Below are positions 62,813-63,074 of a stretch of 64,000 nucleotides of DNA, piece after piece. The stretch spans positions 1,885 to 65,884 of the IMG/VR virus record IMGVR_UViG_3300030109_002859; one strand, 5' to 3'. A model generated the notes under the pieces. It saw only the letters and a program-made list of their open reading frames with translations, did not search any database and was not told the origin of the DNA. The position numbers and the translations under genes were made by a program. Positions within the stretch are counted from its first letter, which is position 1; the number at the start of each line of letters is the position of its first letter. The DNA is from a virus. Lineage: Duplodnaviria > Caudoviricetes.

Positions 62813-63074
62813 GGTAGTAAATTCATCACGGAAATCTTATCGTGTCCAGCGAGGGCGATGTTAACGGCGGTAAGACAGGAGGTTAGGTAAACAAACAAAC
62901 AGAATCACTTTGGAAGCATTGTGTGGTTTGTTCAGATATGCCAGTTGGATTGACATTGAATCAGATACTCGTCTTGGAAACTTGACTTGGGGTTCTTTGC
63001 CAGTTGGGTGTCAAGGGGTGATGAGAAAAGATGCTTTGGAAGCTGCGAAAGTAAGGCCTAAGATGTTTACTACC
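62813..63074 (+). ncRNA. Candidate structured ncRNA 1 (~262 nt), family unknown
   Basis: Ends pair (GGTAGTAAA/TTTACTACC), several internal stems, GC-richer than flanks, follows tandem promoters. Confidence 0.65.

Follow-up and report, generated by a model that had tools for sequence, protein, structure and literature searches.

A candidate structured RNA family in a cassette island that precedes the gp32-like gene in an uncultured marine myovirus

What is encoded in the GC-rich stretch that precedes the gp32-like gene of an uncultured, AT-rich marine myovirus? The window analyzed here, a whole stretch of 64 kb, is drawn from a 65.9-kb IMG/VR virus record with an estimated completeness of 33%. 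Positions 62813-63074 of the window lie within a GC island: the region has 43-44% GC, compared with approximately 23-31% in its flanks and approximately 30% in the genome. A sequence-only reading had placed here a novel structured non-coding RNA (ncRNA) of about 260 nucleotides (nt) upstream of gp32. Comparison with homologues upholds the novelty, the structured character, the lack of an Rfam family and the position upstream of a gp32-like gene, and replaces the specific fold. With a probability of about 0.6, we consider 62813-63074 on the plus strand to encode a highly structured ncRNA that stands alone, is transcribed independently, and belongs to a family not in Rfam. All features described below are on the plus strand unless marked otherwise.

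Homologues and the predicted fold

The homologues collected amount to 92 copies, corresponding to 57 distinct RNAs of 216-307 nt in 66 distinct contexts, and all of them come from marine viral or metagenome contigs. Fractions of 57 and 66 below refer to these two sets. Eighty related loci were retrieved with the start of the downstream gene as query, and 12 of them hold the candidate RNA at 84-91% identity. Further copies were obtained by pattern scans, two on viral contigs, one on metagenome contigs, and one on genome contigs. The first pattern, a 17-mer, yielded 41 stretches, eight of which contained no scorable copy (seven chance matches and one locus, L085, cut at the contig end); the second yielded 102 stretches, mostly chance matches. 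An nhmmer search over all fetched loci recovered the close family only and no divergent homologue. Similarly, a blastn search in distant mode with the query 62660-63790 gave zero matches among 50,697 phage records, and the RNA is thus absent from the cultured phages in that set.

The family appears to be real and is apparently uncatalogued. The covariance models of Rfam 15 gave no match to 62813-63074 at gathering scores and none at E ≤ 10, so that the novelty proposed by the sequence-only reading, which an Rfam hit would have removed, stands. The same holds for the homologues: an Rfam scan of the 12 homologous loci placed no family over the RNA. Neither tRNA nor tmRNA was found in the region by ARAGORN, and the lack of Rfam matches at E ≤ 10 covers RNase P as well, in agreement with the earlier failure to recognise any of these three signatures. 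The same negative extends to 6S RNA, the riboswitch classes, self-cleaving ribozymes, ROOL, GOLLD, and pRNA. No prior description of the RNA was found in the literature, where the supplements (the additional files of PMC2864571 and marine metatranscriptome small-RNA lists) could hold one.

The structural model was built with RNAalifold on 17 sequences, followed by inspection of the alignment, and was tested on the 57 distinct sequences. It contains 63 base pairs in nine helices, and 96.1% of the alignment cells hold standard pairs. Sliding the 3' partners by 1-3 columns drops the pairing to 36.4-54.2%, and these slid controls show 0-2 pairs changed on both sides. In the model itself 11 pairs are changed on both sides, compared with 6.1 ± 1.0 in shuffled alignments, and 105 cells are compensated, compared with 25.8 ± 8.4; neither value is reached by any of the 500 shuffles. 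The covariation score is 0.131 versus 0.086 for the shuffles. On four of the five measures no shuffle attains the observed value, and the fifth, the number of further pair types, is reached by 210 of 500. Compensated pairs beyond control levels, the mark of a structured ncRNA, are therefore present. The sequence-only reading had suggested looking for covariation among homologues upstream of gp32; it is found there, for the revised fold.

The core of the RNA (62813-63024, 213 model positions) is predicted to be organized by an outer stem, P1 and P2, that closes a four-way junction with the arms P3/P3a and P4 and the long-range domain P5-P6-P7. The closing stem P1 pairs 62813-62821 with 63066-63074 (model positions 1-9 and 254-262; GGTAGTAAA/TTTACTACC), and P2 pairs 62823-62829 with 63018-63024 (11-17 and 206-212). 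The first arm consists of P3, in which 62835-62843 pairs with 62867-62875 (23-31 and 55-63; TCTTATCG/CGGTAAGA), and of the apical P3a, 62844-62847 with 62853-62856 (32-35 and 41-44), which bears a hypervariable loop. In P4, 62898-62900 and 62902-62908 pair with 62923-62932 (86-88, 90-96 and 111-120), and the apex has the form G-GAAR-C (62912-62917). The long-range domain starts with P5, 62935-62939 and 62941-62944 with 63004-63012 (123-127, 129-132 and 192-200), and continues through the short helices P5b, 62947-62948 with 63000-63001 (135-136 and 188-189), and P5c, 62954-62955 with 62998-62999 (142-143 and 186-187), to P6, 62958-62962 with 62991-62995 (146-150 and 179-183). It ends in P7, 62971-62976 with 62981-62986 (159-164 and 169-174), with a GAAA loop at 62977-62980.

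The best-supported helices are P6, P5, P5b, and P3, together with the loop-closing pair of P7. P6 has three compensated pairs with four combinations, and P5 also has three, including one sequence with a change from U-G to A-U. In P5b, G-C is replaced by C-G in 13 sequences; in P3, U-A is replaced by C-G in seven. The pair that closes the GAAA loop of P7 is A-U in 29 sequences and G-C in 28. A pair of indels in P4 leaves the helix intact. P1 is 96.0% paired where letters are present, with one change from A-U to G-C, in one sequence, and is shortened to GGTAG/CTACC or GGT/ACC in 21/57. Both this closing stem and the TCTTATCG/CGGTAAGA helix had already been named by the sequence-only reading, and both are retained in the family. 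Conserved GAAA loops cap two hairpins, and a number of single-stranded joiners never vary. Selection acting on the fold is indicated by this constancy across 57 sequences and by compensatory changes in no fewer than seven helices.

The strand follows from the wobble pairs. At eight positions the commonest pair is U-G or G-U, and the opposite strand would give A-C mismatches there; the orientation of the promoter described below agrees. A segment with the sequence GTGATGAG was also considered as a k-turn or box-C-like element and this reading was rejected, as the segment pairs 7/7 with 62823-62829 in 57/57 sequences and its only variable base gives U-A or U-G.

The region also contains an open reading frame (ORF), 62910..63101, of 63 amino acids (aa) with a TTG start, and one may ask whether the observed conservation reflects a protein. 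Of the 53 homologues that were scored (4/57 lack the anchor), 15 have a stop three codons into the frame. Frame lengths run from 3 to 80 codons, and one frame had not yet closed where the sequence read ended. Variable columns are distributed over codon positions 1, 2, and 3 as 21/39, 11/38, and 14/38, that is, with no excess at the third position, and indels of 1 nt and 11 nt fall within the ORF region. The ORF has neither an ATG nor a ribosome-binding site (RBS). Conservation that follows the codons of this ORF, which would have spoken against an RNA gene, is thus not seen. By its pattern of change the region appears non-coding, and we give the protein-coding explanation practically no credence.

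The optional 3' module and the repeats

In the window, an insertion at 63025-63065 separates P2 from the 3' strand of P1. This module, called here type A, contains a second copy of CTTTGGAAGC, the sequence ATGCTT, a GCGAAAGU hairpin with a GAAA tetraloop, and the sequence CCTAAG. A module at this place is absent in 21/57 distinct RNAs; the others carry type C (15), type B (11), B-long (6), or type A (4), and the hairpins that replace type A are unrelated to it. Thus, the 3' hairpin appears to be an optional and interchangeable module. Three related loci contain an additional cassette (L011:1802-1900, L023:2126-2300, and L024:2573-2670), in which the same promoter and leader as those of the candidate head a small GC-rich RNA-like element that measures approximately 70 nt or more and lies just before the candidate RNA. 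The small cassette of L023 holds the type-C hairpin, which in other genomes forms the 3' arm of the candidate itself. Therefore, hairpin modules appear to have been exchanged between RNAs.

The modular nature of the 3' arm bears on the function proposed by the sequence-only reading, a decoy or structural RNA with an AAGCAT/ATGCTT pseudoknot and two pairs of duplicated 10-nt protein-binding sites. All the strings that it listed do occur in the window where it had placed them, and a hairpin motif resembling CTTTGGAAGC is found repeatedly, namely at the apex of P4, in P7, and within the type-A module. Against this model, the pseudoknot partner and the second copy of CTTTGGAAGC belong to the module that 21/57 RNAs lack and that has the window's type in 4/57 only, and the same is true of the proposed TGC-GAAA-GTA hairpin. 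Pairing of the pseudoknot amounts to 61.2% where letters are present, and it shows no covariation. The two copies of TGCCAGTTGG, the other repeat, diverge independently in relatives and form opposite strands of the helices P5 and P5b, so that they pair with each other.

The remaining helices of that model fared variously. The CATC segment finds its partner in the GATG at 63021-63024, within P2, and not in the GATG adjoining the 3' end. TTAGG/CCTAA is 40.6% paired, and CTTGAC/GTCAAG is broken in approximately half of the sequences. The AACAAAC/GTTTGTT pairing is invariant in the homologues and represents an alternative register of P4 that is compatible with the data. Pooled together, the proposed helices other than the two retained ones are 79.5% paired, and their covariation is matched by 149 to 372 of 500 shuffles. 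Since the repeats and the pseudoknot lie either in an optional module or on the strands of one helix, the comparison offers no evidence for duplicated protein-binding sites or a decoy role, and we regard this model as very improbable.

Transcription and genomic context

The candidate RNA is preceded by a σ70-like promoter at 62759-62788 (CTTGACT, a 17-nt spacer, and TATATT), which is conserved in the alignment. The pattern TTGACW-N16-18-TATAWT is found within 80 nt upstream of the RNA in 61/66 contexts; three contexts lack it and two are incomplete. In the 64-kb window, perfect matches to the promoter in the form CTTGACWTT-N15-TATAWT are found at four places only. One is the promoter of the RNA, and another (62678-62707, again CTTGACT, a 17-nt spacer, and TATATT) heads a short "empty" cassette immediately upstream. 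The two further perfect matches lie in tandem on the minus strand at 50457-50615 and point at a 128-aa ORF (49841-50227).

Between the -10 box and the RNA there is a conserved 18-nt leader, GTAAGTTATTTGACAATT (62794-62811), which ends one base before the RNA. Within the 64-kb window, when up to two mismatches are allowed, this leader has just three occurrences (62713, 62794, and 63171, of which the copy at 63171 has two mismatches), and it always heads RNA cassettes: the copy at 62713-62730 has no mismatches, belongs to the empty cassette, and is followed by an A-rich stretch, and the copy at 63171-63188 heads the manA-like cassette discussed below. The layout of the empty cassette recurs in 10 gp32 loci. 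In related gp32 loci the leader precedes the candidate RNA, the manA-like tandem, the empty cassette, or, at the three loci mentioned above, the small GC-rich RNA of about 70 nt. It may serve as a transcribed 5' leader or a processing signal. A pairing of the leader with the trailer that would extend P1 was considered and rejected: it fits the window and two common haplotype combinations, and is broken in others, among them approximately 14 copies that combine a TTGACAATTA leader with a GAAGATTTTAA trailer.

Downstream of the RNA, the window contains a terminator-like element (63100-63135), which consists of an A-tract, a 5-bp hairpin (63118-63122 with 63126-63130), and a T-run; it was not flagged in the consensus scan, as it has too few G-C pairs. 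The 3' context varies among the relatives. The layout of the window, with a terminator-like element after the RNA, is seen in 24 of the 66 contexts. In 30 the RNA is followed by the RBS and ATG of a small ORF and in 7 by another promoter; two contexts are of other kinds, and three are too short to classify.

The contexts with the small ORF suggest a different explanation, namely that the RNA acts in cis as the leader, riboswitch-like or protein-binding, in the 5' untranslated region (UTR) of the ORF whose product begins MILKVVGQ, and that the window has lost the ORF and kept the leader. In these 30/66 contexts the RBS and ATG lie within 120 nt of the RNA, the RBS approximately 45 nt downstream of it, with no terminator hairpin between. 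Nucleotides of the four-way junction are conserved, as they are in aptamers, and the neighbouring manA RNA was itself first proposed as a riboswitch candidate (PMC2864571). Riboswitches, by contrast, keep a constant 5' UTR position before a coherent set of genes and have an expression platform. Here a terminator-like hairpin or another promoter takes the place of the ORF in 31/66 contexts, the RBS lies well beyond P1, which already closes the RNA, and in the alignments no alternative pairing that would involve the RBS region was seen to be conserved. The ORF product, 99 aa long, has no annotatable Pfam family that would suggest a ligand. In addition, the promoter and leader are shared with the manA-like cassettes, downstream of which that ORF is lacking. 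On balance, a cis-acting leader seems unlikely.

The variable downstream context makes the RNA look like a stand-alone cassette, and, with the 3' end sealed by P1, there is no visible expression platform. Together these two features suggest an RNA acting in trans and not a gene-specific switch; the host-type promoter suggests early expression. We thus propose that the host RNA polymerase would transcribe the RNA early in infection, and that the product may act in trans as a compactly folded particle and not as a switch of the neighbouring gene, with the GAAA loops possibly forming tertiary contacts.

The RNA is an accessory element. It is present in 11 of the 49 related loci whose sequence upstream of the gp32-like gene extends for 1320 nt or more. 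The other 38 manage without it, so that it is dispensable, and 36 of these 38 retain the manA-like region. Covariance model R1, which scores the window copy at 248.9 bits, detected no divergent substitute in 68 gp32-neighbourhood loci; the highest non-self score was 11.1 bits (E = 0.97).

This polymorphism resembles that of PeSLs, promoter-terminator cassettes that reportedly mediate modular shuffling in the genomes of T4-type phages. PeSLs flank ORFs. As in that system, a repeated terminator-like hairpin and an early promoter flank variable inserts at our locus, and the content of the inserts differs between close relatives; unlike that system, the cargo is a structured RNA and an additional 18-nt leader is conserved. 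In its layout and its presence/absence polymorphism, the locus has the character of a PeSL-type mobile regulatory cassette.

The same features could mean that the stretch is functionless GC-rich filler, a remnant shuffled by recombination at repeated promoter and terminator units, with structure as a by-product. Presence varies among close relatives (11/49), the haplotypes are mosaic, the flanking promoter and terminator repeats resemble PeSL cassettes (PMC2839356 and PMC4122927), and the folding energy is not exceptional. Such filler is hard to reconcile with joiners that stay constant over 57 distinct sequences, with compensatory changes in seven helices or more, and with RNA ends that are sharply conserved while the flanks vary; we consider it quite improbable.

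Several observations nevertheless weigh against a stand-alone structured RNA gene. The folding energy of the single sequence is no better than that of shuffles (z = -0.10 for the plus and -0.54 for the minus strand), and the support therefore comes from sequence comparison and not from thermodynamics. The model was built in part from the very sequences on which it was tested, which inflates the percentage of paired cells, and the counts of compensated cells could be inflated by block recombination between haplotypes. P7 is only 67% paired, with two non-standard pairs, and P2 and most of P4 barely vary. The family is narrow, with a blastn identity of at least 84% throughout and a single phage lineage; as it is also mosaic, independent compensatory events are few. 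Finally, there are the majority of related loci that lack the RNA and the 30/66 contexts, described above, that fit a leader role.

The RNA island and a possible self-pairing site

The arrangement of the locus marks the candidate RNA as an accessory cassette within an RNA island of which manA RNAs are also part. The island (62657-63790) is composed of tandem cassettes, each with an A-rich tract, a σ70-like promoter, and the leader GTAAGTTWTTTGAYAATT, in the order empty cassette, candidate RNA, and manA-like tandem. The tandem is closed by a stem of its own, formed by TTTGGAATT at about 63193 and AATTCCAAA at about 63596. It includes a weak manA-like RNA at 63204-63358 (18.1 bits, E = 0.048, below the gathering score) and a manA RNA (RF01745) at 63387-63587, whose 55.7 bits compare with a gathering score of 55.2. 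Upstream of gp32, manA reaches the gathering score in 10 of the 20 related loci scanned. Scores in related loci range from 55.5 to 61.2, and thus a divergent manA subtype, marginal to Rfam detection, is carried by this phage group.

The island is followed by the start of the gp32-like gene for a single-stranded DNA (ssDNA)-binding protein (63787-63999), which continues beyond the end of the window. A full-length homologue in a related locus, L020, matches Pfam PF08804 with 53.8 bits. For the gp32-like protein, the closest cultured relatives are remote: a hypothetical protein of Microcystis phage Mel-JY01 shares 47% identity with it, and a protein of Flavobacterium phages annotated as ssDNA-binding shares 41%. 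Downstream of the gp32-like gene of L020 there are ORFs that look UvsX/RecA-like, RNase H/FEN-like, and helicase-like, judging from their translations alone. Genes for a tail sheath and for tail fibres are also present in the window. An ORF that lies two genes before the RNA (60954-62321 in the window, corresponding to L020:804-2138) has an N-terminus shared among relatives and a divergent remainder; a weak endonuclease VII/HNH-like match (PHROG 1035, E = 6e-4) was obtained for the window version (455 aa) and not for the L020 version (444 aa). This divergence is a further sign of modular exchange in the region.

As to the host, positions 1-7875 of the contig L261, which was binned in a Candidatus Pelagibacter metagenome-assembled genome, are syntenic with 55447-62848 of the window at 65-87% identity. 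L261 is probably a phage contig that was binned together with its host. This provides a weak hint at a SAR11 host, with which the GC content of about 30% is consistent.

The candidate RNA is not itself a manA RNA: a cmscan search at E ≤ 10 over 62600-63800 located manA at 63204-63358 and 63387-63587 alone, with no hit in 62813-63074. The two RNAs do have much in common. Both are structured marine-phage RNAs of approximately 200 nt with multiple hairpins and conserved loops, and in the window a manA RNA lies 310 nt downstream of the candidate in the same island, under the same kind of promoter and leader. The differences are that manA forms a row of hairpins within a pseudoknot and the candidate a predicted closed four-way junction, with no match in sequence or structure between them, and that in this phage group manA precedes gp32 almost universally, the candidate being optional. 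According to a 2026 preprint (10.64898/2026.07.01.735769), kissing loops assemble manA RNAs into decamers and a 60-mer cage. For ROOL and GOLLD, large ornate RNAs associated with phages, homo-oligomeric complexes are reported (PMC12286853). Like the candidate, ROOL and GOLLD are orphan ncRNAs that extend from promoter to terminator and have many conserved helices; they measure several hundred nt and their self-assembly has been shown, whereas the candidate is shorter, has no Rfam match, and its self-assembly is hypothetical.

A possible basis for self-association is found in the first arm. The 10-nt bulge between P3a and P3 (62857-62866) contains a palindromic hexamer, GTTAAC (62860-62865). 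Among the 57 distinct RNAs the hexamer is GTTAAC in 42 and GATATC in 14, with one unreadable and no intermediates. The two model positions that differ, 49 and 52, covary perfectly, with a mutual information to every other column of at most 0.28; sites only a few bases away thus appear to be uncoupled from them by recombination. These positions cannot pair within one molecule and could pair between two.

The composition of the window is of interest here. GTTAAC is scarce, with 8 occurrences compared with 20.7 ± 4.8 expected, and GATATC is in excess, with 30 compared with 14.8 ± 3.9. The scarcity of GTTAAC may reflect avoidance of a restriction site. A single change would suffice to lose an avoided site, yet the double change keeps the self-complementarity, which would argue for selection on the palindrome itself. 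On the other hand, the switch is a single two-base event at positions only 3 nt apart, which could be linked.

Palindromic kissing-loop dimerization is known from the retroviral dimerization initiation site, and intermolecular loop pairing from the packaging RNA of phage φ29. Similarly to these elements, the candidate has a self-complementary six-base sequence in an unpaired loop, with two variants that are each self-complementary; unlike in these elements, the hexamer lies in a bulge and not in a hairpin loop, and its pairing between molecules is a prediction. The bulged palindrome hints at a candidate kissing site. Given the oligomers reported for manA and for ROOL and GOLLD, self-association is a reasonable guess by analogy, though the odds are against it. 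Two copies of the RNA would then pair via the palindrome, and the RNA would work as a dimer or a higher assembly, as reported for manA. In its full form, a new self-assembling phage RNA that forms a dimer or closed oligomer alongside the cage-forming manA, with docking of the GAAA loops helping the palindrome, the proposal is speculative, and we put it forward tentatively.

Few RNAs combine a complex fold with unpaired nucleotides that never change, and those that do have usually proved to be ribozymes, riboswitches, or scaffolds of ribonucleoproteins. The candidate is a tractable orphan RNA in an RNA-cassette island common with manA, and is short enough for direct biochemistry and cryo-electron microscopy. 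Nature provides a ready resource for such work in the form of 57 sequence variants, module swaps, a palindrome with two states, and manA alongside. Resolving one RNA of the island could help to explain the others, including the orphan manA, for which cages have been reported. More generally, a promoter-driven region of RNA cassettes suggests that these phages use folded RNAs, beside proteins, early in infection. If the RNA does self-assemble, the GTTAAC and GATATC variants would represent two mating types and the swappable 3' hairpin an exchangeable surface module, and the candidate and manA together would provide abundant marine phages, possibly those of SAR11, with a toolkit of "RNA particles" expressed early.

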